A program made the translations under genes and the position numbers. Below, one piece after another: positions 1 to 20,000 of a stretch of DNA of 20,000 nt. The notes under the pieces are model-generated. The model was not told the DNA's origin. It saw only the letters and a list, made by a program, of their open reading frames with translations, and did no database searches. The number at the start of each line of letters is the position of its first letter. The first letter of the stretch is position 1. Where the stretch lies: IMG/VR virus record IMGVR_UViG_3300025534_000009; one strand, 5' to 3'. This stretch comes from an uncultured virus (IMG/VR IMGVR_UViG_3300025534_000009). Taxonomy: Duplodnaviria > Heunggongvirae > Uroviricota > Caudoviricetes.

Positions 1-2
1 TG

Positions 3-125
3 CGCTCCTATACCGAGAACCGGGGTGGAGAATACGCCCTTGGTGTCGAGGACGGCATGCAGAAGGCAGCAGACATTCTGGAAAATCTCATACGCCGCTA
101 TCGCGAGGGGGTCGTTATTGGATAG
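3..125 (+). CDS. 3' end of a hypothetical phage protein (partial, runs off the left edge)
   Basis: Open frame from position 3 (RSYTENRGGEYALGVEDGMQKAADILENLIRRYREGVVIG) ending at TAG 123-125 and overlapping the next start codon. Confidence 0.6.
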   Translation, partial: RSYTENRGGEYALGVEDGMQKAADILENLIRRYREGVVIG

Positions 126-378
126 GAAATTCAGCAGTCTGCTCGATGAGCTGATTGGCCCGGCAGCTCCAGAGCGAGACAAGGACCTCTTCATCGAGAG
201 CAGAGCGCAGCAGGTGATCGCTTCAGCGAACAACTTGATTGCGCTCATTAGGGAAACCTACGACGCGGAGACGGCCGAGGAGCTTCGGCGTCGCCTCATC
301 AATTCGATCAAAAGCGGAGATGAAAACAAGTTCCGGCGACGCATGGCGAAAATCAGAGAGGATCGTCTGTCCAGATAA
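118..378 (+). CDS. Conserved hypothetical jumbo-phage protein
   Basis: TTG start at 118 after GAGGGG is preferred to the GTG at 25. The stretch IESRAQQVIASANNLIALIRETYDAETAEELRRRLINSIKSGDENKF resembles, from recall, a family in large T4-like myoviruses. Confidence 0.75.
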   Translation: MDRKFSSLLDELIGPAAPERDKDLFIESRAQQVIASANNLIALIRETYDAETAEELRRRLINSIKSGDENKFRRRMAKIREDRLSR

Positions 379-396
379 CCACGAGGACCATCGCCA

Positions 397-1215
397 ATGT
401 CAAACAATAACAATAAGAAACTGGCGCAAACAATTGTGGAAGACGGATTTTTCAGTGGCCTTGCATCATCGCTTGGATTGACTGGCAAGGCAGCTCTCGG
501 CGTTGGCCGGGATGTCAGGATGGCGGTAGCTGGAGCGAAAGGCGCCAATCTCTACAAGCGGGTCTATCGGAAGGTGATGCTCGATTGGAAGAAGTTTGCC
601 GCGACCCTGGGTGCCGACGCTAAGACAGAAGCTGCGCCGACGGACGAGAACCTGCTGAAATTCGTGCTGAAGTACTACAAGGCCGACGCCTCGGAGCTTC
701 TGGCTGAAATCAAGACGGACTTCGCCAGGTTCGCCGACGACAAGACCGATGGTGATGACTCCCCGGATGCCGTGCGTAATCGCAGCGTCGAGAGGGCAAT
801 GCGCGAGCACCGGAAGATGATGCTGGTGGCCGAGGAGTTTTTCAAGGCGCTCGCCCGTGAGATCGCCTCCGACCCGAAGCTCGCGCTCCTGTTTCTTGGA
901 GACAAAAAGGCGCGGTCTGACGGCGGCATTGGTCAGGCCTCGTACACCTCGGTCGGTGTCTCCTCCGCTGCGAGAGCGGGCGCGTATGCGAGCACTTCAA
1001 GTTCACCCTCGTCATCCAGGTCCGATCCCGAGGTCAACATGCGCGCCTTCGCCAAGAACCTCGGTGACCTCGGCGTGCGGAAGTCCCTCTTCACAAATCT
1101 GGCCGAGCTGCGCGGATACGATTTGTCCGAAATCCATCAGCGGATAAAAACCTTCATGGATCACGAGGACGCCACGAAGATCGTCGCCGCCATGCTTGCC
1201 GCACTTAGGAGGTGA
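397..1215 (+). CDS. Hypothetical protein, possibly a virion/internal head protein
   Basis: 272-aa ORF with GAGGA RBS, GC3-rich codons and operon packing. Confidence 0.85.
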   Translation: MSNNNNKKLAQTIVEDGFFSGLASSLGLTGKAALGVGRDVRMAVAGAKGANLYKRVYRKVMLDWKKFAATLGADAKTEAAPTDENLLKFVLKYYKADASELLAEIKTDFARFADDKTDGDDSPDAVRNRSVERAMREHRKMMLVAEEFFKALAREIASDPKLALLFLGDKKARSDGGIGQASYTSVGVSSAARAGAYASTSSSPSSSRSDPEVNMRAFAKNLGDLGVRKSLFTNLAELRGYDLSEIHQRIKTFMDHEDATKIVAAMLAALRR

Positions 1216-1216
1216 C

Positions 1217-1882
1217 ATGGAATTCATCCGCAACCTCAGCGAAAGCAAGCTGTTTCCATCGAAGGAAATTCTGGAACGTTACTCCAGGAGGGAGATCGCA
1301 GAGCTGCTCTATCTCTACATCATCGCGTTCCGGATTTTCATGGCTGAGGAGAGCACTCGCTTCTGGGCTTCCAACTACCTCCGGAAGACCATTCAGAACG
1401 GTGAGTTCTCCCGCTGGCAAACCACGGGAAACGACCTCTACGTTCTGATCTACGCGATCCAGGCCAAAAAGGGCGACGAGAAGCCCTACCCGCTTCGCAT
1501 GTCCGACCTGACCCGGTGGATCAAGCAAGGGGCAACGCGTCGAGAGTTCCCTGATCGGCTGACCGATCGGCTCTTCGTTCGTCTGGACTTCGATCTGAGG
1601 ATCAAGCACGAAAGCATGCGCGCCGTCCGGCGACTCGTTTCATCGTGGCCGACGCTCGAAAAGGAGTATCGCCGTCTGGCGATGACCAGGCTGCTTCAGT
1701 TCCTCCGCGCCAGATCACCGAAGAGCGACATTCTTCTCATGCTGCGACGGCTGGCCGAGATCGAGAACTACGAGCTGAAGAACGTCTTCAACATGGAGAC
1801 AGGAGAGTTCGAGTACGACCAACAGCCTCAACTGACAGGGAAGGAAAGCTTTCTTCAAAAGCTCATTCGGTCCAAGAAATGA
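1217..1882 (+). CDS. Conserved hypothetical jumbo-phage protein
   Basis: ATG at 1217 follows AGGAGG, 1 nt after the upstream stop. MEFIRNLSESK...TGNDLY resembles a recalled large-phage family. Confidence 0.85.
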   Translation: MEFIRNLSESKLFPSKEILERYSRREIAELLYLYIIAFRIFMAEESTRFWASNYLRKTIQNGEFSRWQTTGNDLYVLIYAIQAKKGDEKPYPLRMSDLTRWIKQGATRREFPDRLTDRLFVRLDFDLRIKHESMRAVRRLVSSWPTLEKEYRRLAMTRLLQFLRARSPKSDILLMLRRLAEIENYELKNVFNMETGEFEYDQQPQLTGKESFLQKLIRSKK

Positions 1883-2109
1883 AGTCTTTCATCGAATATC
1901 TTCAGGACGTTGAACAGGAACGCCTCGACGAGGATGCCACCAGCGGGGCGACAAGTGCCGCATCCATTGCGATTGTAGTCGGAGGCCTCGGCCAGAAGGC
2001 AAACACCGACACCATTGGCGTCGGCTTTGAACCGGACGGCCACGAGCGCAGCATCTATCTGGCTCCGGAGTCGCCGAAGACCGGTAAGAAGCCTATTCTC
2101 CGTCGGTGA
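1879..2109 (+). CDS. Small putative capsid-internal protein
   Basis: ATGA overlap with the upstream stop. The N-terminus MKSFIEYL resembles the T4 internal-protein capsid-targeting sequence, and it carries an LDEDATSGATSAASIA motif. Confidence 0.8.
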   Translation: MKSFIEYLQDVEQERLDEDATSGATSAASIAIVVGGLGQKANTDTIGVGFEPDGHERSIYLAPESPKTGKKPILRR

Positions 2110-2131
2110 ATGTCAGAAAACACATTCGTAA

Positions 2132-2137
2132 TAAATA
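2132..2137 (+). promoter_or_regulatory. T4-like late promoter core (TAAATA)
   Basis: ATAAATA in an AT-rich intergenic gap, 31 nt upstream of the ATG at 2169. Confidence 0.6.
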
Positions 2138-2168
2138 GTCGTACAACCTTTTAAGAAAGGATTTCAAC

Positions 2169-2504
2169 ATGTCTAATAAGGTCAATGGTAAGGCGCTTCC
2201 CGGCGAGAACCTGACTGGCAACCTCCAGTTCTTCTCGGTCACGACCACGGTCGATATCTCGGGAACCACCGCGCAATCGCAGAAGGCTTTTGATCGTCTC
2301 ATCGAGATCATCTCGCTGAACGGCCAGCCGGTCATCCTCGGCCCGGTCACGGTCGATGGTTCGGACTACTCGTTCCGCTTCGCCACCGAGCATGCCGGTG
2401 CGTGGGCCAGCGCTGACGCTCTGGTTGCCGCCATCGAGCAGCACGGCAAGGGCATCTTCGACCAGGGCTCGGTCACTGTCGAAGTCAGCGACATGATCGG
2501 CTAA
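2169..2504 (+). CDS. Putative virion structural protein
   Basis: 111 aa with strong codon bias, AAGGA RBS, its own late-promoter motif and a terminator. The N-terminus KVNGKALPGENLTGNLQFF resembles recalled small jumbo-phage structural proteins. Confidence 0.85.
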   Translation: MSNKVNGKALPGENLTGNLQFFSVTTTVDISGTTAQSQKAFDRLIEIISLNGQPVILGPVTVDGSDYSFRFATEHAGAWASADALVAAIEQHGKGIFDQGSVTVEVSDMIG

Positions 2505-2528
2505 GGCCTTCTGGGTCAGATTGAGAAG

Positions 2529-2557
2529 CGCCCGATGCATAAGCATCGGGCGTTTTT
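2529..2557 (+). terminator. Rho-independent terminator
   Basis: CGCCCGATGC-ATAA-GCATCGGGCG followed by TTTTT. Confidence 0.85.
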
Positions 2558-2560
2558 GTT

Positions 2561-2566
2561 TAAATA
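2561..2566 (+). promoter_or_regulatory. T4-like late promoter core (TAAATA)
   Basis: TAAATA directly after the terminator and upstream of the ORFs at 2591 and 2736. Confidence 0.5.
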
Positions 2567-2590
2567 TAATTGTCATTAGTGATCAATGAG

Positions 2591-2749
2591 ATGACATTGA
2601 ACGAGCTATTCAGTCTGCGCCGTAAGCGTAAAGAGATCGTCTGGGTCAAGCGCGGAAATGAACGAGAACGGACGGATATTTCCATCCGGCGCGTGATACA
2701 GCCTAGGCGACGCTTCGATATTCGAGGAAAGAATAATGAAAAAGATTGA
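2591..2749 (+). CDS. Small basic hypothetical protein (52 aa, not in ORF track)
   Basis: MTLNELFSLRRKRKEIVWVKRGNERERTDISIRRVIQPRRRFDIRGKNNEKD fills the gap after a TAAATA motif and overlaps the next start. Confidence 0.5.
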   Translation: MTLNELFSLRRKRKEIVWVKRGNERERTDISIRRVIQPRRRFDIRGKNNEKD

Positions 2750-3434
2750 TTTTGTGACCGATCTCGCGAATCTTCTTTCATTGGAGGCAAAGGATATTGA
2801 CGTTGTCGTCAAGCACCTCGGCTTCGACGAAATCATCGACCTGATCGACGCCGCCCAGAACAAGGACAAGAAGCGTGCCGCGAGAATTCTCGGTATCCGT
2901 GAGGACGGTCGCGAGTTGTCTGGGATCAGCGACCTGCTGGCGTCGTTCGAGAAGGACACCAAGCTCCGCAAGGAAGGTTCGTCCAAGGACGCGAGACGCT
3001 ACATGCCGAACATCAACGACAAGGTGATCGTCAACGGCGAGCGCGGGACCGTGAAGATTCCCAACGGCCCGAATGGTACGATCGGCGTGATGATCGACGG
3101 TGAGCTGACAATGGCCAAGAGATCGGAAGTGCGGCCGCTACGGGAGTCCACTCTTGGCATGACCACGATCCCATCGCTTGAGCGCATGCGCGAGCTGGCT
3201 GGTATTACCACGTGCTCGGAGCCATCCCAGAAGCTGCCTACGCCCGCCGTGGACGTTGATAGCGAGTGTTCGGACGAGGAATGCCCCCTGGCGGCTATCC
3301 AGGACGCTTTCGACACCATCGAGAAGAACATCGGCAACCTGAAGATCAGGGATGGCAAGATCGTCCGGGATCGCGCCAACCGCATCCTCATGCGGCTGAA
3401 CGAGAGCGCCACTCGGCGCGGCCGACGCATCTAG
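2736..3434 (+). CDS. Hypothetical virion-associated protein
   Basis: 232 aa with GAGGA RBS, an LERMRELAGI motif and LRE/LNE motifs typical of large-phage head proteins. Confidence 0.85.
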   Translation: MKKIDFVTDLANLLSLEAKDIDVVVKHLGFDEIIDLIDAAQNKDKKRAARILGIREDGRELSGISDLLASFEKDTKLRKEGSSKDARRYMPNINDKVIVNGERGTVKIPNGPNGTIGVMIDGELTMAKRSEVRPLRESTLGMTTIPSLERMRELAGITTCSEPSQKLPTPAVDVDSECSDEECPLAAIQDAFDTIEKNIGNLKIRDGKIVRDRANRILMRLNESATRRGRRI

Positions 3435-3437
3435 CGC

Positions 3438-3477
3438 AACGACGGAGGTGACCATCGGGCCACCTCCGTCGTTTATT
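3438..3477 (+). terminator. Rho-independent terminator
   Basis: 13-bp stem AACGACGGAGGTG/CACCTCCGTCGTT followed by TATT, right after the stop at 3434. Confidence 0.75.
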
Positions 3478-3494
3478 CCAAGCAAAGTGACGCT

Positions 3495-3519
3495 CAAGAA
3501 TGCCCGGAAGACCGGGCAT
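3495..3519 (-). terminator. Terminator of the former RNA ligase gene
   Basis: ATGCCCGG-N4-CCGGGCAT hairpin followed by TCTT on the minus strand, just downstream of the ancestral stop at 3525. Confidence 0.55.
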
Positions 3520-3524
3520 CCTTG

Positions 3525-4589
3525 TCAATTGTACTCCGTCACGTTTCCCTTGCGGGTCAGCGGGGTTGATGTCCTGCAACATCACCCTGTCCATGCCGTC
3601 AGGCTCGGACCGGATCACGATGCCCTCACGCACGTGGTTGGCGAGCGTTGTGGTGCCGTTCTTGAGGTCACGCAGGCTCTGGGACCACGGTCCCTTGAAA
3701 AGGAGCGGAACGGTCTCGGCGCCAATCTTCTCAGTCGCCTGTGCCATCTCCTCCCACTTGAGAAAACGCACCTCACTCCCCTTAACGACCACCACATCGA
3801 ACACCCCGAATTCGGGCTGGTCCTTTCCATAATGGAGGTCCTGGATGCCCTTGCCGAAAACCTCTCCCAGGAAGAAGACCTTGTCGTAGCCATCGACAAA
3901 GCGCTTGAACGCCTCCAGCTTCGAGAGAAGAGCCTTGACGTAGACATTCCGAGAGACGTTCGCTTCGTTGTTCTTGAAGACGAGCCCCTTCGCGCCGAGA
4001 CCCTTTGAGAAGCAGAAAAAGTCCCCTTCGAACAGGTGCTGGTTGCCGAGACCACGGACAAAGCCAAGGCCGCAGAAAGTGCCGTGAATCTTCTCTGTAA
4101 CCGTGACGGACATGCCATCGACGAAGAGGTCCGAGAACTTCTGAATATTCTCCACGTCGAAGTCGATGGTGTTCTCCTGACCGATGAACACCACGTCTCC
4201 AGCCATGGACGCCGGAATCTCGGGAACGAACTTTGTGATCCCGAGGAACTCCGCAACATCGTCCCCGACCTTGACCTGCTTCCAGGTGTAGGTCCCGTCG
4301 GCGTTCGGAATGCGATCGCGGACGGAGACATCATCACCATCGATCACGCCCCATGCAGGAAACATGATCCCTCGGGAAAGGACGTCGCGCAGCTTGATCG
4401 CCTTCACACGATTGCCCTTGCTGCCCGCAAGGAGCCCCCTTGTTGTTCTTCTCGTCCCAATATCCTTCCTTGAGGAGTGCGTCGGGCACAACGGCCCCCT
4501 CCGGGACGTAGACGACATAGTCTCCCGGCGCGTAGCCTCCCATCAGGCAACTTGGCAGAGATGGAGACAAACTCTCGGAAATAGTTCAG
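3525..4589 (-). pseudogene. Degraded ATP-dependent RNA ligase, Rnl2/DRB0094-like family
   Basis: Motifs I (TEKIHGT), III (LGEVFG), IIIa (FGVFDV) and IV (REGIVIR) are present. Frameshifts occur near 4538, 4437 and 3561, motif V reads RVMLQ rather than K, and no in-family start was found. Confidence 0.85.
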
Positions 4590-4938
4590 CCCCTCCCCAG
4601 AGCCAAAAGATACAGATAGTCGGGCGCCTCCACCTTTATGAGAAAATCCTTGGCGGGACCAAAACCAACTTGGTCGCGAAGTGCCTCGGACAACATACGC
4701 AGGTTAGGGTACATCTTAACGAGCCGACAGATTTTGGTCGCCGCCTTCAGGTCTTCATCGTTAAGTTGGTAGGCGATTACCCAGACGATGAGGCGCTTGG
4801 TGTCGGTATCGATATGGACTTCGTACTCTGAAGTATCTTTATGAAAGAGAGAAAGAAGGTTCGAAAAACCGCCATACGGGTTATCCCCGGTTTCGTCGCA
4901 AACAACGCCACTATAAAATCACTACCACAGAATTGCAT
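4586..4938 (-). pseudogene. Possibly frameshifted hypothetical gene
   Basis: A 111-codon open frame (4918-4586; FYSGVVCDETGDNPYGG...YLLALGRG*) has no early start codon. One extra T in the T4 run at 4915-4918 would join it to the ATG at 4938. Confidence 0.4.
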
Positions 4939-5246
4939 TTCTTTTACATGTGGTCGGACCATGGGTGGTGAGTAACCAAGCACCCGTTGCTGGCTGTGAC
5001 GTGCATGTCGCCAGAAGCGCCCCAGTCGAGCAGCGGGCGTCGAGTACGACCTGTAAGAAAACATCACCGCAATAGTCAAACTTTCGATTTCATTGCTTCA
5101 GAACCGGGAGGCGCATCGCATGTCGTACCAGACGTAAAAATGATGTCGGGTGGGAAAGAAGAATTCGATGAGAATATTTCTTTGATATGTTGCCGACACT
5201 GACCAAAGGCGGCGCACGTTGCCAGCGTGTCTTTTTAAATAGTATC

Positions 5247-5816
5247 ATGACTACCATTCGCAAAGCAAAACGAAACATCGGTCCGGTTCTCAGCGAGGCG
5301 GGAGCAGGACCGTCGCGTCTTGTCGCTCACATCAGATCGGGGCGTCCCTTCTTCATGATCTCGGCCATGCGTGCGAACCTTTCCCATCACGAAAACCTGG
5401 TTCGCGCCAAGAAACTGGAGAGAATGCTGGCGAACCTCCCCTACTCTTTCATTCGAACGGAGGGTGAGTACCTTGAGATCGGCCAGACCGAGCCAAGCCC
5501 GGAGTTGTCTCTGTTCGTCATGCCCGTGGACCCCGAAGCGCCCGGTGCGATCGACAGAATGATTTTTCTGGCTGTACGACTTATGCGAGTATTCGACCAG
5601 GACTCCGTCCTTATCGGCGACGGCAACCGTGTCTATCTCCGCGAACGGGATGGAAGTGAATTCTCGCTTGGAAGCGCGGCATCGTTTTCTCTTGCGGTAA
5701 TCAAGCGTGCTCCGGCCTTCAGCAAGATTAAAGGCCGCAAGTTCACTTTCGCCGACCCTGACGATGCTCCAGGTGCCGCCGTCTATGGCCAAGACAAAAG
5801 TGTTGCGAACCAATAG
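5247..5816 (+). CDS. Conserved hypothetical phage protein
   Basis: ATG at 5247 lies 5 nt after TAAATA (5236-5241). The FFMISAMR...GEYLE...ELSLFV...FDQDSVL pattern is recalled from large-phage proteins. Confidence 0.8.
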   Translation: MTTIRKAKRNIGPVLSEAGAGPSRLVAHIRSGRPFFMISAMRANLSHHENLVRAKKLERMLANLPYSFIRTEGEYLEIGQTEPSPELSLFVMPVDPEAPGAIDRMIFLAVRLMRVFDQDSVLIGDGNRVYLRERDGSEFSLGSAASFSLAVIKRAPAFSKIKGRKFTFADPDDAPGAAVYGQDKSVANQ

Positions 5817-5839
5817 CGTGTCGCTATAGTTGCCACGCT

Positions 5840-6193
5840 ATGCGTAAGAGCGAGCTGTTCACAGAACTGACCAAGCGGAATGCGCTTCGGCGGGAGGCGC
5901 AGCTGCCGTTGCTCGACCTGCGCAGGGAGCTCCAGAAGCAGGAGATCATCGAGGCCTGGAAGGAGTATTACACGATCCAGGAGGCCTACGAGGAGAAGCG
6001 GAAGAGCATCTTGGATCGGATATCGCGGGAGTATGCCGTCAAGTACGGTGTGGCCCCGGACAGCGCCGGGGGCCATTGGATCGTCCTGGCTAAGGCCGAG
6101 CGGGAGTTCGAGGCCTACCTGGAGACGATCGGCTACAAGAAGCCCCCGCCAATCCCCGGCCAGGCGATCTTCTACGGCGGTGACACCGAGTAA
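5840..6193 (+). CDS. Hypothetical helical protein
   Basis: 117-aa ORF with strong GC3 bias, convergent with the next gene. Confidence 0.8.
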   Translation: MRKSELFTELTKRNALRREAQLPLLDLRRELQKQEIIEAWKEYYTIQEAYEEKRKSILDRISREYAVKYGVAPDSAGGHWIVLAKAEREFEAYLETIGYKKPPPIPGQAIFYGGDTE

Positions 6194-6203
6194 TCCGCCA
6201 CTC

Positions 6204-6665
6204 TCAAATCACTTCGTACCGCTTGAGCTGCTCAAGTGTGTCATCGGCGTTCTTGTGGCGAATGCCGATGCCACCAGCGGCTTCCCACCGCCTGATGTTC
6301 TTCGGCATGTCATCGACCAAGATTTCGCCCGGTCGGCGGATGTGTAGAGCCTTGTCGCGAGAAAGGCATGTGACAACGAGCTCATGGTCAAAGTGCCGCT
6401 TCCACCACTCCTTCTTGGCGGCCGCAGCGACCTCAAAGCCACTCTTCGGGCAGCCGGTGAGCACCACGGGCTGAAGGTGTACAACCTTCTCCCAGAGATG
6501 CATGGCGTCGCTCTTGAGCGGCATCTCGTACCAAAAGTCGTTTCTTTTATTGATGAGAGCCCACATGTGGGCTTCGTTCATCTCCCGTGGCCACTTCCCG
6601 AAGAGCTGGTAAACGTGGAGATCGAAGTCGGCAAAAACTCCGTCACTGTCTAGAACGATGCTCAT
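6204..6665 (-). CDS. HAD-superfamily 5'(3')-deoxyribonucleotidase (NT5C-like)
   Basis: N-terminal LDSDGVFADF (DxD), LTG, K..W and LVDD motifs, with an AGGAG RBS. Confidence 0.9.
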   Translation of the reverse strand: MSIVLDSDGVFADFDLHVYQLFGKWPREMNEAHMWALINKRNDFWYEMPLKSDAMHLWEKVVHLQPVVLTGCPKSGFEVAAAAKKEWWKRHFDHELVVTCLSRDKALHIRRPGEILVDDMPKNIRRWEAAGGIGIRHKNADDTLEQLKRYEVI

Positions 6666-6713: not shown

Positions 6714-6783
6714 GTACCATATAATTCAGGCTCGCGTGGCGCCCCGGCTTCCTCGTTACATGAGGCGTCACGCATTCGTATGT

Positions 6784-7773: not shown

Positions 7774-7783
7774 TGGTCGCTCG

Positions 7784-13641: not shown

Positions 13642-13669
13642 GTCGGTCGCCCCTCGCAGGCTGCGAAAT

Positions 13670-13698
13670 TTGACATCCGGGCGACCGGTCGCGAGACT
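13670..13698 (+). promoter_or_regulatory. repA promoter with palindromic operator
   Basis: TTGACA-N17-GAGACT. The spacer holds the perfect palindrome GCGACCGGTCGC (13681-13692), built from the iteron core GCGAC. Confidence 0.55.
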
Positions 13699-13726
13699 CA
13701 TTCTGTTGAATCTCAAGGACAAAGCA

Positions 13727-14878
13727 ATGTCGGTGCAGAAGCGCGGGTCGGTCCCCTCCAAGCCGAGGGTCATCAACGAGCCTCTCCAGTTCGACTTCTT
13801 CTCCTCCGACGACAAGGGCTACTCCAAGGCGCTCGGGCTTTGGGACATGGCGCCCTACACGGTCCTTTACACATCGGCCGAGGACCGCGAGTCCGGGCGC
13901 TACCTGAAGTCCATCGACCGGACGTTCGAGGCTGGCGGCAGGGTCTACAAGTTGACACTTCGCCCTGCCCGCATCCGCCATGAAGATGGGCGCGAGACCG
14001 ATGAGTACCCTGGCGAGCGCGAGCACCTGGTCGAGCTGGCGATCCGCCGTATCGCCACCATCCATCGAGACATGACGCTCGACTCCGACGAGGTCGTGTC
14101 GGTGACGGTCGGTCTCTATCAAATATGGAACGAGCTGCGCGCCAATGGGCACACCTACAGCTACGAAGAGATCGACGCGGCTCTCGACGTCCTCAACAAG
14201 GCGCAGGTCGAGATCAGCCGGATTGACAATGAGGATGGCGAGGAGATCGAGAACATCCTGTCGGAGCCCATATTCCCTTCCCTGCGCTACAGGAAGAACA
14301 CCAACAAGGAGCGGGTCTCCAGCAACATTGCGCGAATCAGACTCAATTCATTGATGGCAGACGCCATCAAGCGGCTCGATCTGCACGATGTCGATTACGG
14401 GCTGCTGATGTCGCTGAAGGCGATCCCGCGCTGGGTGTACAAGCGCCTGCACTACCTGGTGCTTTTCTCCAACACGGAGCAGGAGGTGTTCCAGGTCCGG
14501 GCTTCCGAAATCCAGCAGATTTCGGGTATGGGGACGTACAGCCGTGCCCGCGATGCCTGGGACAAGATCACCACGTACCTGAACGACCTGATCACGGCAG
14601 GCATCGCCGACGAGATCGTCCCCGAGCCGATCTATGACCGCAGCGGACGCGGACGACCGAAGCGGATCGACATCGTCTACAATATCAAACTGTCCAGCTG
14701 GTTCCTGGACACCTGCGCGAACGCGCGGCGTCGCATGATCAAGGACCGGGAGGACTTCATCGCGGTGGCTGGGCGGCACCCTCAGGAAGGGTGGCATCGC
14801 GCAGAGAGAGCCACGCGAACGAAACTCATCGAGCGCAAGAAGGCACGGGAGAGAGACGAAGCCGCCTCTCTCCCCTGA
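13727..14878 (+). CDS. repA: Plasmid replication initiator, IncA/C RepA-like family
   Basis: ATG at 13727 after AAGGA. It aligns colinearly with recalled IncA/C RepA: YS...D.P, PA.I...DGR....Y.G.RE...E.A.R..A, LY....EL...GH.Y...EI..A, FP, N.L....I, R..YKR..Y and ID..Y.I. Iterons are adjacent. Confidence 0.85.
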   Translation: MSVQKRGSVPSKPRVINEPLQFDFFSSDDKGYSKALGLWDMAPYTVLYTSAEDRESGRYLKSIDRTFEAGGRVYKLTLRPARIRHEDGRETDEYPGEREHLVELAIRRIATIHRDMTLDSDEVVSVTVGLYQIWNELRANGHTYSYEEIDAALDVLNKAQVEISRIDNEDGEEIENILSEPIFPSLRYRKNTNKERVSSNIARIRLNSLMADAIKRLDLHDVDYGLLMSLKAIPRWVYKRLHYLVLFSNTEQEVFQVRASEIQQISGMGTYSRARDAWDKITTYLNDLITAGIADEIVPEPIYDRSGRGRPKRIDIVYNIKLSSWFLDTCANARRRMIKDREDFIAVAGRHPQEGWHRAERATRTKLIERKKARERDEAASLP

Positions 14879-14885
14879 GAAATGC

Positions 14886-16157
14886 TCACCACAGAGTGGC
14901 CGGAAGACGACGCTTCCAGCGTTCGCCCGGCTTGAGGAAGCCCGCGTGCTCCTTCTCCGCGAACTTCGCGACCTTGGCTAGTTCGCGCGAGGCCCAGCGG
15001 TTGTAGAGAAGGCGCTTCGGCGGACGCACACCCGAGAATTCCCCGGCTGGCTCGGTCTGAGCCGGTGTGCTCGCAACTGGAGCGGGCGTGGGAGCGGGTG
15101 CAGGTGCGGGAGTCTGAACAGGCTGCTGGACAGCGACCTTCGGGGCTGTCTGCTTCCGGGGCTGACGCGGCTTGCGGGTCTTCGGTGCAGCCGCCTTCGG
15201 TGCGGCAGCCTCGTCCTTAGGAGCTGCTTCTTCCCACTCGTCGTCGGTAATGGGCGCGGGTTCGGGGGCCACATCGGCCGTTTCGGCCTCGCTCGACGCG
15301 TGAGCGGGTTCCTCAGGAGAAGCCGTCTCGACCGGCGTCTCTTCCTGAACGACCGGCTCCTCGACAACCGGGGCATGCTCCTCGGCCGCAGGCTCCGCTA
15401 CGACGACCGGCGCAGTCTCGTCCACGGCTGGCGCCTCGGTCTCGGCAACCGGTGCGGGCTCCTCGGTCGGGGCTTCCGCAACGACATCCGGCGCGGCCTC
15501 GACCACGTCCTCGGTCTTCTCGGCAACCGGTGCAGGAGCCTCTTCAACTTCTGCCTCTTCGACCTTGGCCTCCTCGACCTCCCGGCTCTTCGTCTCGACG
15601 GGCGCATCAACGAAGAGCGTTGGCTGGGAATTGTCCTCCAGCACGTCGAAGAGCTTCTTCTGCTGCGGGACGGAGGCTAGTTCGTTGCCTTCGAGGGTGT
15701 CTACCTTCTTCGGGCCGCGCTTGGAGCGCTTGTTGGCTTCAGACAGTCGCTCCTCAACCGGATCGGTACCGAGGAGGCTCGGGAGAACCTTCTTCTCCTG
15801 CGCAGCCTCGGGTTTCGGTTCGGGAGCGACCTGCGGCTCCACCGAGGCGGTCACGGCCTCGGGCTGTGGTGAAGGAGTTGCCGTACGACGCAGGAAGGAA
15901 GGGATTTCCAGATCGTCCGACTTCGAGGTATCGTTGCTCATTGTCACGTTCTGCGGTTGAAACGAACGCCCAAACAGCGCTTCCTCGGCGGAGCGCAGCT
16001 GGTCATACGAGATATCTTCGCGAATATCCCGCACCGGAAGTTCATCGTCGTAGATCGGGTCGATGGTATTACCTTCGGGCTCGATACCGTTTCCCGTTCT
16101 CATCGGCCGTCGCGAACGCTTTATCTCCACCTTGAACTGCGGGATTTGGCGTCTCAT
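14886..16157 (-). CDS. Acidic Pro/Ala/Glu-rich disordered protein with basic termini
   Basis: 423 aa. The N-terminal FKVEIKRSRR and C-terminal LKPGERWKRRL motifs are recalled from Hyphomicrobiales hypothetical proteins. GAGG RBS. Confidence 0.85.
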   Translation of the reverse strand: MRRQIPQFKVEIKRSRRPMRTGNGIEPEGNTIDPIYDDELPVRDIREDISYDQLRSAEEALFGRSFQPQNVTMSNDTSKSDDLEIPSFLRRTATPSPQPEAVTASVEPQVAPEPKPEAAQEKKVLPSLLGTDPVEERLSEANKRSKRGPKKVDTLEGNELASVPQQKKLFDVLEDNSQPTLFVDAPVETKSREVEEAKVEEAEVEEAPAPVAEKTEDVVEAAPDVVAEAPTEEPAPVAETEAPAVDETAPVVVAEPAAEEHAPVVEEPVVQEETPVETASPEEPAHASSEAETADVAPEPAPITDDEWEEAAPKDEAAAPKAAAPKTRKPRQPRKQTAPKVAVQQPVQTPAPAPAPTPAPVASTPAQTEPAGEFSGVRPPKRLLYNRWASRELAKVAKFAEKEHAGFLKPGERWKRRLPATLW

Positions 16158-16317
16158 TGGACCTCTGCTTAATGTCTTCCCAGACGAGGCAAATCAGTGT
16201 GATCGGATTCATTATAGCCCTTGGTCATCGGATGGGAAGGGGCATTCTGTCGCTATATTGTTTCTAAACACAAAAACTCCGGCCATGATCTCGCCAGAAA
16301 CTCCACGCCGTCTTGTT

Positions 16318-16908
16318 TCAAATCCACGAGAGCGTGGGAGAACCCTGGTATCCGTGCTCCCACACGTACCAAGCGAAGGCGATCATGCCTGTAGAATACC
16401 CATCCCCGTCTCCATTCCGGTACATGCTCAGCCTCTTGCTGAATACGTAGACGGTTCGGAGCGGTGTCTGCTCGAACAGGGCCTTTCGCTTCACACCCTC
16501 CAGGAATTGCAACTTGAGCAGCATCGCGACCTTCCCGGTCGTTCGATCCAGTGCATGCCGCACGAACCTTTCGGCAAACTTGTATGGCGGATTGGTGACG
16601 ATGTTCCGGGCTGTGTATGGGGACGAGAAGAAGTCATGACCGCCCTCCCCGTAACCACGGTCGATCAGGTCGGTAGCCAGAACGTCATAGCCACGCTCTG
16701 CAAGCACCGAACATATGGCACCGTCGCCACATGCAGGTTCCCAGATGATGCCGTCGAACCGTTCGCGGTCCAGCAAAGCATGCGTTGCTTCTGGCGGTGT
16801 TCTGTAGAAGTCGGCATCTGGCCGCCCAGCCGATGTACCGACGAGGCTCTGAGCCCGTCTCCTTCTCTTATCCTTTTCTGAAAGATCGTCAACGAAAGTT
16901 TTCACCAT
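16318..16908 (-). CDS. Phage-type DNA amino-methyltransferase (probably N6-adenine)
   Basis: DFYRTP, SAM-binding WEPACGDG and catalytic NPPY motifs. TAAATA lies 4 nt before the ATG. Confidence 0.9.
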   Translation of the reverse strand: MVKTFVDDLSEKDKRRRRAQSLVGTSAGRPDADFYRTPPEATHALLDRERFDGIIWEPACGDGAICSVLAERGYDVLATDLIDRGYGEGGHDFFSSPYTARNIVTNPPYKFAERFVRHALDRTTGKVAMLLKLQFLEGVKRKALFEQTPLRTVYVFSKRLSMYRNGDGDGYSTGMIAFAWYVWEHGYQGSPTLSWI

Positions 16909-17091
16909 ACATTATTTAGGATGACGGGCGCTTGCCCTGCTCCCGCCGACGCCGTCGATTCGCGATCCGGGTCGCGGGTCGGCCTGATGGCTCGGCAAAG
17001 GACGAAAACTCGTTGACGAAACACGATCGCAGGGCGGAAAACGGCGCTGTTGCAAGGGCTTAACCAAACGCACGAAAAATCGTTGACGAAA
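16886..17091. repeat. Three copies of the quasi-palindrome TCGTTGACGA
   Basis: A direct repeat ACGAAAA(C/A)TCGTTGACGAAA (19/20 identical) at 17002-17021 and 17072-17091, plus an inverted core at 16886-16895. Confidence 0.7.
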
Positions 17092-17110
17092 ACCGAATCT
17101 CGGCTATAGT
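17083..17110 (+). promoter_or_regulatory. Sigma70-type promoter of the ParB-like gene
   Basis: TTGACG-N16-TATAGT with GAATC in the spacer. Confidence 0.55.
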
Positions 17111-17164
17111 TCAGCCATCAAAGCGATTCCACAACGTATTCATACAGAAATAAGGAGTGTAGAT

Positions 17165-18091
17165 ATGACTGCTGTTGCCGTTCACGCTCCCGAGGCGCCG
17201 GTTGTTCTTGACTTCGAAGCCGCCCGTGCTGCGGCCAAGGAGGCGGCCCCGGAGTTGTTTGCCCTCGCCGAGAGCAAGCTTCAGGAGGGGGGCAAGGGCG
17301 GCATCAAGGAGATCGCGGACGGTCGCTCCGACGAGTTCCGCGTCAATCCGTTCAGCCTCTACGTCGAGCCGGGCTGGAACTCCCGCGACCTGGACGACCC
17401 CGAGAACCACAAGCACATCGATTGGCTGTCGAAGAACATTGCCGAGAACGGCGTCCTCGATGCTCTTGAGGTTTATGTCTGCAATGGCCGCCTGAAGATC
17501 GTTGACGGTCACTGCCGGTACTTCGCGACGATGCGCGCCATCGCCAACGGTGCGCAGATCAAGACCGTCCCGGTGAAGACGGTCCCGAAGGGCTCCGACG
17601 AGGGCGATCGCATTCTGTCTCAGATCGTCCGGAACGCCGGTAAGCGACTTTCTCCCCTTGAGACCGGGGTCGTCTACAAGAAGCTCATGGCTCTCGGCTG
17701 GTCCGAGAACGATATTGCCAAGCGGTCGAGCTGCACTGTGAACAGCGTTCGCCAGCTCCTGGCCCTTCAGGAGGCGCCCGTCGAGATCAAGAAGTACATC
17801 ACGCAGCGCCGCATCTCGGCGACTCTGGCGGCCGAGACCCTGCGCCACTACCCCGAGCAGGAGGCGATCCAGATCATCCGTGATCAGATCGCCGAGGCCG
17901 ACAAGACCGGTCGTCGCCGGGTGACCAAGAAGCACATCGAGAAGACCGTCGCGTCCTTCTCGCCAAAGGCCCGCCTGCGCGAGCTGTTGGAGGCGTTCTC
18001 CGTGGCTGAGGTGGTCACCAGTGACGACGAGGTGCTGGTGCGGTTCGACGTGGCCACCTACGAGAAGGTGCGCGAAGCGCTGGTCTGCTGA
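17165..18091 (+). CDS. ParB/Srx-family protein (ParB N-terminal domain plus HTH)
   Basis: WNSR, IVDGHCRY, LSPLE and GWSENDIAKR(HTH) motifs, with RBS TAAGGAG. Confidence 0.9.
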   Translation: MTAVAVHAPEAPVVLDFEAARAAAKEAAPELFALAESKLQEGGKGGIKEIADGRSDEFRVNPFSLYVEPGWNSRDLDDPENHKHIDWLSKNIAENGVLDALEVYVCNGRLKIVDGHCRYFATMRAIANGAQIKTVPVKTVPKGSDEGDRILSQIVRNAGKRLSPLETGVVYKKLMALGWSENDIAKRSSCTVNSVRQLLALQEAPVEIKKYITQRRISATLAAETLRHYPEQEAIQIIRDQIAEADKTGRRRVTKKHIEKTVASFSPKARLRELLEAFSVAEVVTSDDEVLVRFDVATYEKVREALVC

Positions 18092-18111
18092 TCACAGTGC
18101 CTTCGACGGAC

Positions 18112-18142
18112 AGGAAGCGATCCCGTAAAGGATCGCTTCCTT
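18112..18142 (+). terminator. Terminator-like hairpin after the ParB-like gene
   Basis: 12-bp stem AGGAAGCGATCC-CGTAAA-GGATCGCTTCCT with only a short T tail. Confidence 0.65.
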
Positions 18143-18331
18143 ACGGTCTCGCGTAATGAAAGGTTTGGGGACGTCCATAAGCGTTTTTTCCCGTCGGGCA
18201 GACAAGAGGCGGTGAGTGCCATCCCCGTTGAAAACACCCACAGGAACTGTTGACCTTATGAAAAAAGACGTTCGCTAGAAGGCGCCCCAGAGAGCTTCGC
18301 GAACATTGGAAGGACAGGAAGAGACACCGAT

Positions 18332-18547
18332 ATGTCTGACCGTCGTTTCGGCAACCTGCCCGAGAAGATGTCATGGATGCTCCGTGTTCTTCTCATGGTT
18401 GCCGTGCTCATTGTGGCGGGGTTCGTGATCCGAGCTGCCGATCAGGCCTACGGAATTCTGGCCGGAGCCACCGTTCTCGCCGGTTTCGTCATCGGAATCG
18501 GATTTGTGGTCGCAAGACGCCACAAGCTAACGGGCTCATGGAACTGA
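18332..18547 (+). CDS. Small membrane protein (2 TM)
   Basis: 71 aa with two hydrophobic helices and a basic C-terminus. Confidence 0.7.
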   Translation: MSDRRFGNLPEKMSWMLRVLLMVAVLIVAGFVIRAADQAYGILAGATVLAGFVIGIGFVVARRHKLTGSWN

Positions 18548-18596
18548 ATGAAATGCTCCGCTGGGAAGTGTGCAGTCCACTTCCCCAACTTCGAAA

Positions 18597-18625
18597 GCGG
18601 CCCTCACTGGGCCGCCTTTTCTTTT
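18597..18625 (+). terminator. Rho-independent terminator
   Basis: GCGGCCC-TCACT-GGGCCGC followed by CTTTTCTTTT. Confidence 0.75.
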
Positions 18626-19023
18626 GCATTAGATGCAGTCTCGGCATTCTGGAGCACATGGTTCCAGTCTCCGCAAAGAGCCGCGACGGCCATGTGCAGG
18701 CGCTTGCCGAATGAGCTGTCATAGATGGCGGCCGCAAACAGGGCTGTTGGGAGGATGACCACGAGCCCAGCCAGGGCACAGATTTCCACAAACGCCAGAT
18801 GGGTAAGTCTGTCTTGAAGTGGAGTGAGGGCAAGATAGACCAGAGCCATCACGCCAAGCATCAGGGCGACTCCCAGTGCAGGCGGGACCAGGGTGAGAAC
18901 AAGACCGAGCACGTAGCTTATGCCCTTCCCCGCTTTGCATGCAGCGTGGTTCCAACAACCTTTGAGCTTCGTCGCAAACGTTCCCATCCCGGCCCCAGCG
19001 CTATCCGTTTTCTGAAACGGCAC
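18604..19023 (-). CDS. Membrane protein (about 3 TM)
   Basis: Hydrophobic ORF. The start may instead be the ATG at 18987. Confidence 0.7.
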   Translation of the reverse strand: MPFQKTDSAGAGMGTFATKLKGCWNHAACKAGKGISYVLGLVLTLVPPALGVALMLGVMALVYLALTPLQDRLTHLAFVEICALAGLVVILPTALFAAAIYDSSFGKRLHMAVAALCGDWNHVLQNAETASNAKEKAAQ

Positions 19024-19168
19024 GGAGTTTCTGGCCGAGAAAGAGAGCCAGTGGCAACCCGGCTGTGACGGTTGTCACCAAGCAGCTGAGGGGGTGGAAA
19101 AGTCGCTCAACCGAGGGAGTTGGGAATGATCGAGTATGGGCGCTTGTGTCGGTCAGGCGCCACAAAAC

Positions 19169-19254
19169 TGGCTCGGGTGGCAGGACTCGAACCTGCAATG
19201 CCTTTCGGCGACCGGTTAACAGCCGGTTGTGACTACCAATTCCACCACACCCGA
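19169..19254 (-). tRNA. tRNA-Asn (anticodon GTT), 86 nt, long variable arm, encoded CCA
   Basis: Acceptor stem TCGGGTG/CACCCGA, D stem GTGG/TCAC, anticodon arm ACCGG-CTGTTAA-CCGGT, T arm GCAGG-TTCGAGT-CCTGC, G73 and CCA. TAAATA lies upstream at 19273-19268. Confidence 0.95.
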
Positions 19255-19412
19255 TCAAATACGACAGTATTTATCATCAAAATATCTCGTGAGATAACGT
19301 GAAATAGAAACGCGCGCCCATTCATTGTCCATCTCATCAGGTATGAATGAAATGCATGGCAGTAAAATAGCAAACGGGTTAAATACAGCGCATATTAATT
19401 TCCGGGAGAATT

Positions 19413-19592
19413 ATGTTGAAGAAGTTCAAGTCGCGTCTCGCCGAGGCGTGGAAGCGTTTTTGCATGAGTGAAGAGGAAAGATATCTGATGCAGGCGACCG
19501 ATCTGGAAGACCTGGAGCGTCGAATGCAACGCTGGCGCGAAATGGAAATCGAGCGCAAGCACAGAATGCACATCTTTTATTTACAGCGATGA
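19413..19592 (+). CDS. DUF3563-like small protein (59 aa, not in ORF track)
   Basis: EERYLMQATDLEDLERRMQ motif, GGAG RBS and TAAATA at 19380-19385. Confidence 0.75.
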   Translation: MLKKFKSRLAEAWKRFCMSEEERYLMQATDLEDLERRMQRWREMEIERKHRMHIFYLQR

Positions 19593-19639
19593 TATTGGTC
19601 GGCGTCCTACTCGTAAATAGCGCCGGGGAGTAGGCCGCC

Positions 19640-19996
19640 ATGAAGAAGTTCTTCAAGGACCTGTTTACGGGTCGAAACAACAATTACGACATCGCTCGCG
19701 TCATGTGGTTCCAGTCCATCCAGGCGTACATGCTCATTTCCGCCTACTCGATCTATCAGGGTGGAACGTTTGACGCCATTGGATGGGGCGCAGGTCTAGC
19801 TGCGCTTCTCGGCGGCGGTGGTGCTGCGATCGGACTGAAGGCCAACGCCGATCCAGACGATCTCAACGGTGATGGCTACGTGGACGAAATCGAGCGGGCT
19901 CGCGCTCTCGAACGGCGCATGAAGCATATCGGTCGCCCGCGCCGCAATCGCGGACGGAACATGGACGATGACGATAATCCCTTCATCGGAGATTGA
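19640..19996 (+). CDS. Phage membrane protein (holin-like) with an EF-hand-like loop
   Basis: KDLFTG..N.YDIARV, two hydrophobic/glycine-zipper segments and DLNGDGYVDEIE. TAAATA at 19614-19619. Confidence 0.75.
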   Translation: MKKFFKDLFTGRNNNYDIARVMWFQSIQAYMLISAYSIYQGGTFDAIGWGAGLAALLGGGGAAIGLKANADPDDLNGDGYVDEIERARALERRMKHIGRPRRNRGRNMDDDDNPFIGD

Positions 19997-20000
19997 AAAA

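Follow-up and report, generated by a model that had tools for sequence, protein, structure and literature searches.

A probable captured plasmid replicon in an uncultured Atu_ph07/Phosso-lineage jumbo phage

How does an intact plasmid-type replication initiator gene come to lie among the genes of a jumbo phage, and what would it do there? The locus is part of a 20,000-nucleotide stretch from an uncultured virus (IMG/VR record IMGVR_UViG_3300025534_000009), which was analysed whole and is referred to here as the window. An earlier note, made from the sequence alone, had proposed a large T4-like phage that carries an IncA/C-type iteron replicon and is maintained as a plasmid prophage in an alphaproteobacterium. 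Our analysis indicates with high confidence that a jumbo phage genome has captured a plasmid replicon, which it carries intact. The role of this replicon is a more tentative matter: we infer, with a probability of roughly 0.4, that it serves low-copy, plasmid-like replication of the phage genome during non-lytic residence, in a carrier state or as a plasmid prophage.

The source genome is that of a jumbo phage, uncultured and of the Atu_ph07/Phosso lineage, with T4-type replisome genes of its own. By tblastn, Phosso or Atu_ph07 homologues are found for eight of the 22 window ORFs taken as genes, all eight ORFs lying left of 11.7 kb, and the flank to the left of the window (read in records G001, L089, L090 and L169) is syntenic with both phages, which bears out the proposal of a large T4-like phage. 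This flank encodes a UvsW-like helicase (53% identity to Phosso/Atu_ph07), a primase (35–37%) and a DnaB-like helicase (52–53%), within 15–25 kb of the rep module. Agrobacterium phage Atu_ph07 and Sinorhizobium phages Phosso and AP-J-162, of 470–490 kb, form the sister group of the Rak2-like phages and infect alphaproteobacteria; they share genes and local gene order with the window phage, which differs in G+C content (∼55–57%, against 37% and 47% for Phosso and Atu_ph07; PMC11242549, Table 1). The published description credits the Atu_ph07 lineage with 16 T4 core proteins and places it just outside the Rak2-like group (PMC6102473).

The left part of the window opens with the 3′ part of a small gene (1–378, + strand) that resembles a virion structural protein (phrog_11854 'virion structural protein', E = 9.9e-17), shows 44% identity to Phosso 327790–328008 (tblastn) and also matches RaK2-like phages. 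Three further plus-strand genes (1196–1882, 2169–2504 and 2736–3434) are syntenic with Phosso 330.9–335.5 kb and match Phosso and Atu_ph07 with tblastn E values of 1e-20 to 6e-13. They are followed by an RNA ligase gene (3388–4518, − strand; Pfam RNA_ligase, E = 4.6e-21; phrog_968, E = 3.2e-28), a SAM lyase-like gene (5187–5816, + strand; Pfam S-AdoMet_lyase, E = 2.2e-10) that likely starts at the ATG at 5246, 5 nt past a TAAATA, and a 5′(3′)-deoxyribonucleotidase gene (6204–6665, − strand; phrog_2643, E = 1e-32; Pfam NT5C; 37–41% identity to Atu_ph07/Phosso). A vWA gene (9266–9883, + strand) and its partner (9880–10674, + strand) are conserved and also adjacent in Phosso and Atu_ph07 (phrog_7371, E = 1.2e-37; tblastn E = 1e-31 and 9e-39). 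The final Atu_ph07 homologue ahead of the rep module encodes a secreted-looking protein of 324 residues (10690–11664, − strand; tblastn E = 3.5e-8; phrog_30575, E = 1.3e-6). The decayed genes that had been taken as a sign of long residence in a host were not borne out. The one frameshift found affects the RNA ligase gene towards its 5′ end and stems from an extra C at 4435 that is peculiar to the window's assembly and absent from G001, L066, L068 and runs X2, X7 and X12, and nine ORF-less stretches (4469 bases) gave a single marginal match (E = 0.001) in tblastx against Phosso and Atu_ph07.

The right part contains a DNA methyltransferase gene (16318–16908, − strand; phrog_799, E = 6.5e-66; NPPY motif in the translation) with a TAAATA 4 nt upstream of its ATG, a ParB-like gene (17165–18091, + strand; phrog_1033, E = 4.4e-53; Pfam HTH_ParB, E = 2.5e-6), a tRNA-Asn (GTT; 19169–19254, − strand; ARAGORN; Rfam tRNA, 55.4 bits) with a TAAATA 13 nt upstream, and small ORFs. 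The best tblastn matches of the ParB-like protein (37%) are in Agrobacterium phages Milano and 7-7-1, both lytic. No ParA gene adjoins it and no parS-like palindrome stood out nearby. Virion-type genes had been placed on both sides of rep; on the left this holds for the gene at 1–378 only, and on the right there is none before the window's end, past which a PAAR gene and a glutaredoxin gene were read in L066. The TAAATA repeats on either side of rep are real: nine copies are present against 1.78 expected (none of 200 shuffles reached nine), four to the left and five to the right of the module with none between 9181 and 16912. All nine are intergenic and aimed at a downstream gene or tRNA, and one of them extends to the full TATAAATA.

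The replicon module (∼12015–14839) comprises a winged-helix gene, two sRNA-like units, iterons and rep, and shows 72% DNA identity to L070, a plasmid-like metagenome contig (GC 63%; HipA, GGDEF-EAL and DUF7007 genes) that carries the whole module in the same architecture. The small winged-helix-like protein o190 (11879–12451, − strand) is divergent from rep and has 70% amino-acid identity to L070:8183–8761, with a dN/dS of 0.29. It has only three homologues among 5.8 billion clusters; HTH_36-like clusters in the protein atlas are a lead only. The first sRNA-like unit (12516–12672, + strand; repeat families D3/D4; fold z-score −5.9) consists of a hairpin, a TTGACC-17 nt-TAGTGT promoter, a predicted transcript of ∼85 nt and an intrinsic terminator; promoter and terminator are kept in L070, and no Rfam family matched. 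The second (12915–13062, + strand; z-score −4.8) is its paralogue. Between them, a DnaA-box-like site, TTATCCACG (12728–12736, + strand; one mismatch to the consensus), is followed by a second TCCACA; the site is kept in L070, and such sites are not above chance (one against 1.95 expected). Eight 22-nt iterons, defined by at most two mismatches to TTTCGCGACAAAWACCTYATAG, occupy 13207–13642, five on the plus strand (at 13244, 13298, 13505, 13575 and 13621) and three on the minus strand (13207, 13333 and 13417); 200 shuffled controls contained none. In L070 the iterons are equal in number and arranged alike; their sequence is TTTCGCGACAAATACCCTATAG, which differs at only two of 22 positions. The iterons, the open rep frame and the ParB-like gene are thus all as the earlier note had them.

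The rep gene (13727–14878, + strand) is an intact ORF from its ATG, with an alternative TTG start at 13670, and encodes a 383-residue WH1–WH2 iteron initiator of the IncC-RepA superfamily. Rep is a real initiator, and sequence comparison shows it to be homologous to IncC RepA along its entire length, though distantly: hhalign aligned 339 columns (E = 4.6e-68, probability 100%, 20% identity) and tblastn gave E = 1e-9. A PDB sequence search with Rep detected no similarity; neither Rep nor IncC RepA matched a Pfam family, and Rep3_N matched weakly in seven of 76 family members. The AF2 model (pLDDT 93.6) has a predicted fold that matches solved WH1–WH2 initiators in Foldseek (probability 1.00, E values between 1.9e-8 and 2e-3, target TM 0.46–0.59), with RctB (domains 2–3; 5tbf) first at E = 1.9e-8, then Pi of R6K (2nra), RepE of mini-F (1rep) and Rep–DUE (8ac8) complexes; Rep exceeds RepE and Pi in length by ∼130 residues. 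Rep has 711 relatives in the family search. In the tree, phage Rep and L070 Rep are sisters (100/100), nested with the Reps of Methylobacterium pMNOD02, M. indicum and M. frigidaeris in a clade supported at 100/98. Between phage and L070, dN/dS for rep is 0.116 at a dS of 1.29.

The label 'IncA/C-type' therefore stands as full-length homology and overstates the closeness, since IncC RepA has 20–25% identity to phage Rep and lies in the other main branch of the tree. Both are iteron replicons, but in IncC (e.g. NZ_CP009413.1, IncC by PLSDB) a 19-mer, ATATGGG..CTGCACG, is repeated ∼11–13 times downstream of repA, always in direct orientation, whereas the eight unrelated phage 22-mers lie upstream of rep in both orientations. 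The nearest named Reps (29–40% identity, E down to 7e-77) come from alphaproteobacterial megaplasmids, those of the Methylobacteriaceae being closest: Methylobacterium nodulans pMNOD02, Microvirga pMVF16-4, Roseomonas, Azospirillum and Skermanella. pMNOD02 likewise has many short upstream repeats in both orientations and a divergent HTH_36-like gene. These megaplasmid Reps, annotated 'hypothetical protein', reside on bacterial replicons of 0.3–1.3 Mb with other iteron sequences; phage Rep nests within their group, yet sits in a phage genome. The replicon donor was an alphaproteobacterial plasmid lineage, and the nearest Rep relatives, the tree and the phage relatives together make an alphaproteobacterial host, as previously suggested, a reasonable inference. 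A Rep profile matched G001 (20.9 kb, CheckV completeness 4%; E = 8.8e-115) but gave no match in Phosso, in Atu_ph07 or in any of 32 related records from IMG/VR, of which one is rated 95% complete, and Rep had no match in 50,697 phage records. Its absence from these relatives indicates capture in the window phage's own lineage; the dS to L070, the nearest known plasmid copy, argues against an L070-type plasmid as a recent donor.

In the plasmid-like role, binding of Rep monomers to the eight iterons would open DNA close by, at 12.7–13.2 kb; a helicase, either host DnaB (via DnaA) or the DnaB-like enzyme of the phage, would then be loaded, and theta replication would start. The final iteron adjoins the TTGACA preceding rep, which makes repression of the rep promoter by Rep itself probable. 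The module has sigma-70-like promoters and no TAAATA, and would therefore be transcribed by the host RNA polymerase in its unmodified form, independently of the phage transcription programme. Described phage-plasmids (P1, N15 and SSU5 types) likewise join a phage genome to a plasmid-type initiator. They are, however, known temperate elements that control both partition and lysogeny. Neither kind of control was found in the ∼42 kb of window phage read, and phages with a backbone like that of the window phage have been described as lytic. No ParA, repressor, integrase or toxin–antitoxin gene was seen among the larger ORFs scanned in those ∼42 kb. Also counted against a plasmid prophage are that capsid, terminase and gp55 genes are not within the phage DNA covered, that Phosso and Atu_ph07 manage without Rep, and that the ParB type is best matched in 7-7-1 and Milano. 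Atu_ph07 and AP-J-162 are lytic by description (PMC6102473, PMC11242549). Atu_ph07 yielded no lysogens (PMC6102473), which likewise weighs against this role. Elsewhere, the jumbo circular prophage pBtic235 of Bacillus thuringiensis shows that a plasmid prophage can reach such a size (PMC9700832), and jumbo phages counted as virulent are reported to persist in bacterial isolates, on contigs without plasmid replication genes (bioRxiv 10.1101/2024.12.31.630880). If the plasmid-like role is true, a normally lytic kind of phage might persist in cells in the manner of a plasmid.

The module might instead be a lytic-cycle origin, at which Rep would load the phage DnaB-like helicase and primase with no plasmid state, by analogy with the lambda O protein, which acts at the iterons of ori-lambda. 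The phage-encoded helicases and primase near the module and the lack of a visible partition ATPase or repressor are consistent with this. We consider it rather unlikely, because Phosso, Atu_ph07 and the 32 related records replicate without the Rep family, and the plasmid promoter-like elements, o190 and sRNA-like units in unaltered layout, with no TAAATA, fit host-type control better.

Alternatively, the module could be a recent passenger, moved from a host plasmid by the phage recombination machinery, neutral or selfish and of no use to the phage. The gain is confined to one lineage whose known copies are ∼99% identical, L070 comes from the same sample series as phage copy L067, and the neighbouring o423 (14886–16157, − strand), outside the L070-shared stretch, is an orphan ORF of GC 64%. 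This explanation is also unlikely, given a complete and intact module, the dS of 1.29 to the nearest known plasmid copy and the same junctions in 14 studies from 2016–2025. Within the phage lineage the 1152 bases of rep contain a single SNP, a synonymous one, where the rate across the window (104 SNPs in 17,645 bases) would predict ∼6.8, which also speaks against a passenger, although conservation among copies this similar says little about selection.

Use of the module against a resident plasmid, by titrating or handcuffing a related replicon (incompatibility) or exploiting its Rep, is very improbable: the near-identical iterons and layout of L070 and the shared sample series would suit it, but we found no precedent in the literature searched, and titration by iterons alone would not require the phage to keep an entire rep and o190, on both of which purifying selection acts. 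An assembly chimera, suggested by breaks of Logan unitigs at 12517–12546 and 12737–12742 within the repeated origin region, has a negligible probability, since four other assemblies (99.2–99.4% identity) span both junctions and single X2/X7 contigs (5128–12538, 12517–18988, 9893–12737 and 12742–19299) connect phage genes with the module on either side.

The junctions suspected near 11.7 and 16.2 kb are therefore real, being bridged by X2 and X7 contigs as well; X12 contigs bridge 12015 and 14839. The stretch 10500–17500 is present in 20 of 24 listed runs from 14 studies, all 20 of them metagenomes, from bioreactor, compost and soil, and the longest contig recorded with the identical Rep measures 236,747 bp. 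The acidic, proline-rich o423 protein, which had no match in plasmids or phages, is probably disordered, as its atlas model suggests (pLDDT 0.40), and its gene differs from that in G001 by 11 SNPs and six amino-acid changes.

The window contains 22 ORFs accepted as genes and one tRNA-Asn, with a G+C content per kilobase of 47–66%. Pfam and PHROGs searches identified the end of a virion-structural-protein-like gene (1–378), an RNA ligase (3388–4518, minus strand), a SAM-lyase-like gene (5187–5816), a deoxyribonucleotidase (6204–6665, minus strand), a vWA gene (9266–9883), a DNA methyltransferase (16318–16908, minus strand; phrog_799, E = 6.5e-66) and a ParB-like gene (17165–18091; phrog_1033, E = 4.4e-53). 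Phage genes and a plasmid replication gene (rep, 13727–14878, plus strand) are present on one molecule, one of the features of a phage-plasmid. A tblastn search of all window ORFs against the jumbo phages Phosso (Sinorhizobium, 469 kb) and Atu_ph07 (Agrobacterium, 490 kb) matched eight genes at 26–44% identity, all located to the left of 11.7 kb; megablast with the window as query matched no phage. The genes in 1–3434 follow the order of Phosso 327.8–335.5 kb, and the vWA gene and its partner are neighbours in both reference phages. A second assembly of the same phage, IMG/VR record G001 (20,942 bp; CheckV completeness 4%), is 99% identical to window 1–17645 and, together with three left-flank records (L089, L090 and L169), adds 17.6 kb leftward. 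The genes of this flank, largely in Phosso order, include a UvsW-like helicase (53% identity to both Phosso and Atu_ph07), a piece matching a gene annotated as DnaE-like in Phosso, a homologue of a Phosso 'virion structural protein', a Toprim primase (35–37% identity) and a DnaB-like helicase (52–53% identity); the helicase family has at least 565 IMG/VR relatives. In the 4.9 kb by which a further assembly, L066, continues beyond the right end of the window, there are genes for a 623-aa protein, a PAAR protein and a glutaredoxin, and for two small proteins that match Phosso or Atu_ph07 weakly. Judged by gene content and order, the phage is likely to belong with the Atu_ph07/Phosso-like jumbo phages, a sister group of the Rak2-like phages. 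AP-J-162, a Sinorhizobium relative, is described as a lytic 471.5-kb phage with T4-like capsid proteins (PMC11242549). IMG/VR scans with one window ORF (o264) and with ParB returned G001 as the sole record, and 17 contigs are recorded as carrying an identical Rep, one of them 76,746 bp and the longest 236,747 bp in length. The longest contig and the CheckV value for G001 are indirect signs of a genome above 200 kb.

The rep gene starts at an ATG (13727) with AAGGA 8 nt upstream, and its product is 383 aa long. Single-sequence and profile searches of Rep against Pfam, NCBIfam, PHROGs and PDB sequences gave nothing usable, and no relative was found among 50,697 phage records. A tblastn search against 72,556 plasmids matched 1274 records. 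The top matches are alphaproteobacterial megaplasmids, with Methylobacterium nodulans pMNOD02 first (38.7% identity, E = 7e-77), followed by those of Microvirga, Roseomonas, Skermanella and Azospirillum. The remaining plasmid matches are mostly enterobacterial and are annotated as 'RepB family plasmid replication initiator' beside mobI; the replicon of one such record that was examined is typed as IncC by PLSDB. An exhaustive phmmer search related 711 cluster representatives to Rep at E ≤ 0.001. Rep3_N matches 7 of 76 aligned family members weakly (best E = 7.2e-5), the window Rep itself being without a match. An AlphaFold2 model of Rep, calculated with the 76-row family alignment (A1), has a pLDDT of 93.6 and a pTM of 0.92, and Foldseek matches it to 34 PDB chains at E ≤ 0.001, with domains 2–3 of RctB at the top (E = 1.9e-8), followed by iteron-bound Pi of R6K, Rep–DUE complexes and many entries of RepE54. 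The model and these matches identify Rep as an iteron initiator with two tandem winged-helix domains, of the WH1–WH2 (RepE/Pi/RctB) type.

Alignment of the A1 profile with the RepA of an IncC-typed plasmid (L009, 1139–2239) using hhalign gave a probability of 100% and E = 4.6e-68 over 339 columns (A1 columns 5–353 versus 3–346 of IncC RepA) at 20% identity; by tblastn, the two proteins are 25% identical over residues 32–243 (E = 1e-9). This full-length homology places Rep in the IncC (A/C) RepA superfamily. A maximum-likelihood tree was calculated from 58 rows, which include the first 39 relatives after the query in A1 and exclude its other 36 rows, and was rooted at its midpoint for drawing only. 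IncC RepA falls in the other main branch of this tree from the window Rep. Furthermore, the IncC plasmid carries 19-mer repeats downstream of repA, all direct, whereas the window has 22-mers of different sequence upstream of rep in both orientations. The earlier note had looked to profile comparison and phylogeny for initiator homology of the rep ORF, and this homology is seen in the hhalign alignment, the fold and the tree. Its term 'IncA/C-type' holds at the superfamily level and does not extend to a narrow IncC replicon, given the iterons, the identity of 20–25% and the position in the tree.

Eight 22-nt iterons with the consensus TTTCGCGACAAAWACCTYATAG and at most two mismatches are located at 13207–13642, five in one orientation and three in the opposite one; 200 shuffles of the sequence gave none. 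The last iteron ends 85 nt ahead of the rep ATG and is followed by a conserved TTGACA (13669–13674). Putative cognate iterons thus adjoin rep, one of them overlapping the predicted rep promoter, as expected of WH1–WH2 initiators. Between o190, a small wHTH-like gene (11879–12451, minus strand), and the iterons are two sRNA-like units, which fold well as RNA (z-scores −5.9 and −4.8) and match no Rfam family. A sub-threshold Rfam match at 12581–12668 was rejected (26 bits against a cutoff of 50), and the tRNA alone was accepted within the window. A generic promoter and terminator scan of 11500–17200 gave counts at chance level (2 versus 1.7 and 7 versus 4.7, respectively), and the number of DnaA boxes in the sequence is not above chance. 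Iterons 2, 3 and 4 contain three of the SNPs that distinguish the window from the other assemblies (13264, 13315 and 13334); the versions in those assemblies agree fully with the consensus at iterons 3 and 4 and depart from it at three positions in iteron 2.

A metagenome scan for Rep returned five loci, three from the same phage (99.2–99.4% nucleotide identity to the window) and two further loci (L069 and L070) with an 81%-identical Rep. The source contig of L070 is plasmid-like, 74.5 kb in length with a G+C content of 62–66%, and has genes for HipA, a GGDEF-EAL protein, an M15 peptidase, a thymidine kinase, DUF7007 and a halogenase-like oxidoreductase; the peptidase alone matches Phosso, weakly. 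The only stretch that it has in common with the window is the module at 12015–14839 (72% identity), in which the order of elements is identical. The L070 copy contains o190 (a small divergent gene, 70% amino-acid identity) and both paralogous units, in each of which a hairpin is combined with a TTGACC-17-nt promoter-like site and a strong terminator. Its eight iterons are spaced as in the window and differ at two of the 22-mer positions, and the TTGACA again stands directly ahead of rep. A DnaA-box-like site, TTATCCACG, is also present in both copies, and this conservation in L070 is its one support. Between the window and L070, dN/dS is 0.116 for rep (dS 1.29) and 0.29 for o190. In the tree, the phage Rep and the L070 Rep are sisters (100/100), nested with Methylobacterium Reps (clade 100/98) within a wider group that includes Microvirga Reps. 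The simplest reading of these comparisons is that the phage captured the module from a plasmid carried by Methylobacteriaceae-like bacteria; L070 is not a recent donor. A GC3 comparison for amelioration of rep gave overlapping ranges and was uninformative.

The Rep profile matches G001 (E = 8.8e-115) and nothing in Phosso, Atu_ph07 or 32 IMG/VR records with a 47–56%-identical helicase, which include records rated 95% and 74% complete. The gain of Rep therefore appears to be specific to this phage lineage. The earlier note had pointed to the junctions near 11.7 and 16.2 kb as the places where a chimeric assembly would be exposed. Both phage/module joins are shared by G001, L066 and two further assemblies (L067 and L068), and 10500–17500 is present in 20 of 24 listed runs from 14 studies (2016–2025; bioreactor, compost and soil metagenomes), one of which may be the source sample of the window. 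Four runs of four studies were mapped as Logan contigs, from whose depth no copy number or physical state follows. Single contigs cover 5128–12538 and 12517–18988 in the deep run X2 (∼60x) and 9893–12737 and 12742–19299 in run X7; contigs of X12 bridge both 12015 and 14839 and, among the pieces listed for X17, one bridges 12015. Three joints in this mapping have sides of 20–30 letters, and loose contig ends at 13932 and 15215–15388 are probably from other organisms' relatives. The recurrence of the joins in four assemblies, the bridging contigs and the 14 studies led us to reject an assembly chimera.

The hexamer TAAATA occurs nine times in the window against 1.78 expected. Every copy is intergenic and faces either a start codon, at a distance of 4–85 nt, or the tRNA, at 13 nt, with four copies in 2132–9175, five in 16918–19614 and none in 9181–16912. 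Its presence in both flanks and absence from 9181–16912 marks the flanks as one genome and the module as foreign. T4-type late transcription uses TATAAATA promoters read with gp55, and TATAAATA is found in full at just one of the nine copies. Enriched and well placed, though matching the full consensus at one copy alone, TAAATA is at most a candidate late promoter. The copies at 16913–16918 and 5236–5241 lie 4–5 nt before the methyltransferase ATG and the ATG at which the SAM-lyase-like gene probably starts; were TAAATA a −10-like promoter element, both mRNAs would be leaderless or nearly so.

The rep gene has one synonymous SNP in 1152 bases, compared with 104 SNPs in 17,645 bases overall, and the ORF-free 22% of the window holds half of all SNPs. 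An extra C at 4435 alters the first ∼30 residues of the RNA ligase and is confined to the window assembly, being absent from G001, L066, L068, X2, X7 and X12; either a mutation of the strain or an error of assembly may account for it. A tblastx search of the ORF-free stretches for pseudogene remnants gave one marginal match and no detectable remnant. The 'decayed genes' of the earlier note were not confirmed, the extra C being the only clear lesion.

Rak2/Atu_ph07-type phages are generally regarded as strictly lytic. We assign a probability of about 0.35 to the reading that this is a jumbo phage-plasmid on a T4-related Rak2/Atu_ph07-like backbone, in which the captured Methylobacteriaceae-type replicon would keep the several-hundred-kb genome as a low-copy plasmid in growing cells. 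Plasmid-like maintenance as the role of the replicon, taken separately, has somewhat less than an even chance. It is favoured because the replicon is complete with its parts conserved, because of the low variation in rep and because the module retains host-type promoter-like sites. It also gains from the persistence of jumbo phages classed as virulent in 'pure' bacterial cultures, where they have no known way of being maintained and were reported to lack plasmid replication genes (bioRxiv 10.1101/2024.12.31.630880), and from the discussion of pseudolysogeny in jumbo phages in a review (PMC7824862). It is weakened by the content of the ∼42 kb of phage read, in which no repressor or integrase was found and the ORFs scanned include no ParA, the ParB-like gene being the only partition gene seen. 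The best matches of this ParB type are those in Agrobacterium phages 7-7-1 and Milano, and its gene adjoins the methyltransferase, which also counts against a plasmid state, as do the lytic habit of the relatives, the ∼99% likeness of all copies, whose agreement is therefore a weak sign of selection, and the fact that all runs containing the stretch are metagenomes. Some phages, lambda among them, have iteron initiators, and the replicon could instead supply an origin for the lytic cycle; we consider this unlikely, and the module has kept its host-type promoter-like sites. Equally doubtful is a functionless passenger, against which stand the complete replicon and the nearly invariant rep. A role in plasmid interference is very improbable. 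PADLOC found nothing of relevance to the replicon module.

If the jumbo phage-plasmid reading is correct, the module would explain genetically how 'virulent' jumbo phages can be carried persistently without lysis, as recent work reports. Phage-plasmids are known, including the jumbo pBtic235 (PMC9700832); what is new is the T4-related Rak2/Atu_ph07-like backbone, together with the fact that a complete plasmid replicon of an unannotated Rep family has demonstrably been captured. A search of full-text literature (main texts outside subscription journals) found no paper on such a hybrid of jumbo phage and plasmid replicon. A member of a group held to be strictly lytic carries a complete, intact plasmid replicon and is widespread in bioreactors, compost and soil, and the clonable 3-kb fragment makes persistence testable. 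The large Rep family, which has no Pfam or NCBIfam model and appears as 'hypothetical protein' on alphaproteobacterial megaplasmids, gains a name and a fold for its 711 cluster representatives and a link to IncC RepA.

Several features lie beside the module. The orphan ORF o423 (14886–16157, minus strand) has no relatives among plasmids or phages and gave no informative atlas match. Two 30-nt direct repeats upstream of parB (16997–17026 and 17067–17096) each contain CGTTGACGAAA, and a promoter-like site, TTGACG-16-nt-TATAGT, overlaps the second; tandem promoters or an operator could be represented here. The search for parS-like repeats near parB gave these two direct repeats and no convincing palindrome. 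The SAM-lyase-like gene and the methyltransferase, both typical phage anti-restriction functions, lie within one 12-kb stretch, and the methyltransferase has a weak PADLOC mad2 match. GANTC, the CcrM site, occurs nine times in the 1275-nt origin region (12452–13726), with 32 copies in the remaining 18,725 nt; window-wide, the 41 copies compare with 125 in shuffles, a seeming under-representation in which the shuffles may count the palindrome on both strands. The N6-adenine-type methyltransferase gene is 2.6 kb from this region. Length differences between assemblies cluster at 8106–8197, at the 5′ end and in the upstream region of ORF 7784–8131; they include 10 nt inserted after 8157 (ATCAGAGAAC) and several 1-nt indels. 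The thymidine kinase of L070 (5607–6779; phrog_592, E = 1.2e-58) is extended by ∼180 residues at its N-terminus; Phosso and Atu_ph07 have a thymidine kinase two genes upstream of the vWA pair, which is probably a coincidence. In pMNOD02 (L010, 5167–5838), at least 11 copies of a 14–19-nt repeat, GGTTATTGCTCGCG, in both orientations and a divergent HTH_36-like gene precede the 'hypothetical' Rep homologue, with a repABC partition gene ∼5 kb away, and this locus looks like an unannotated second replicon of that megaplasmid.
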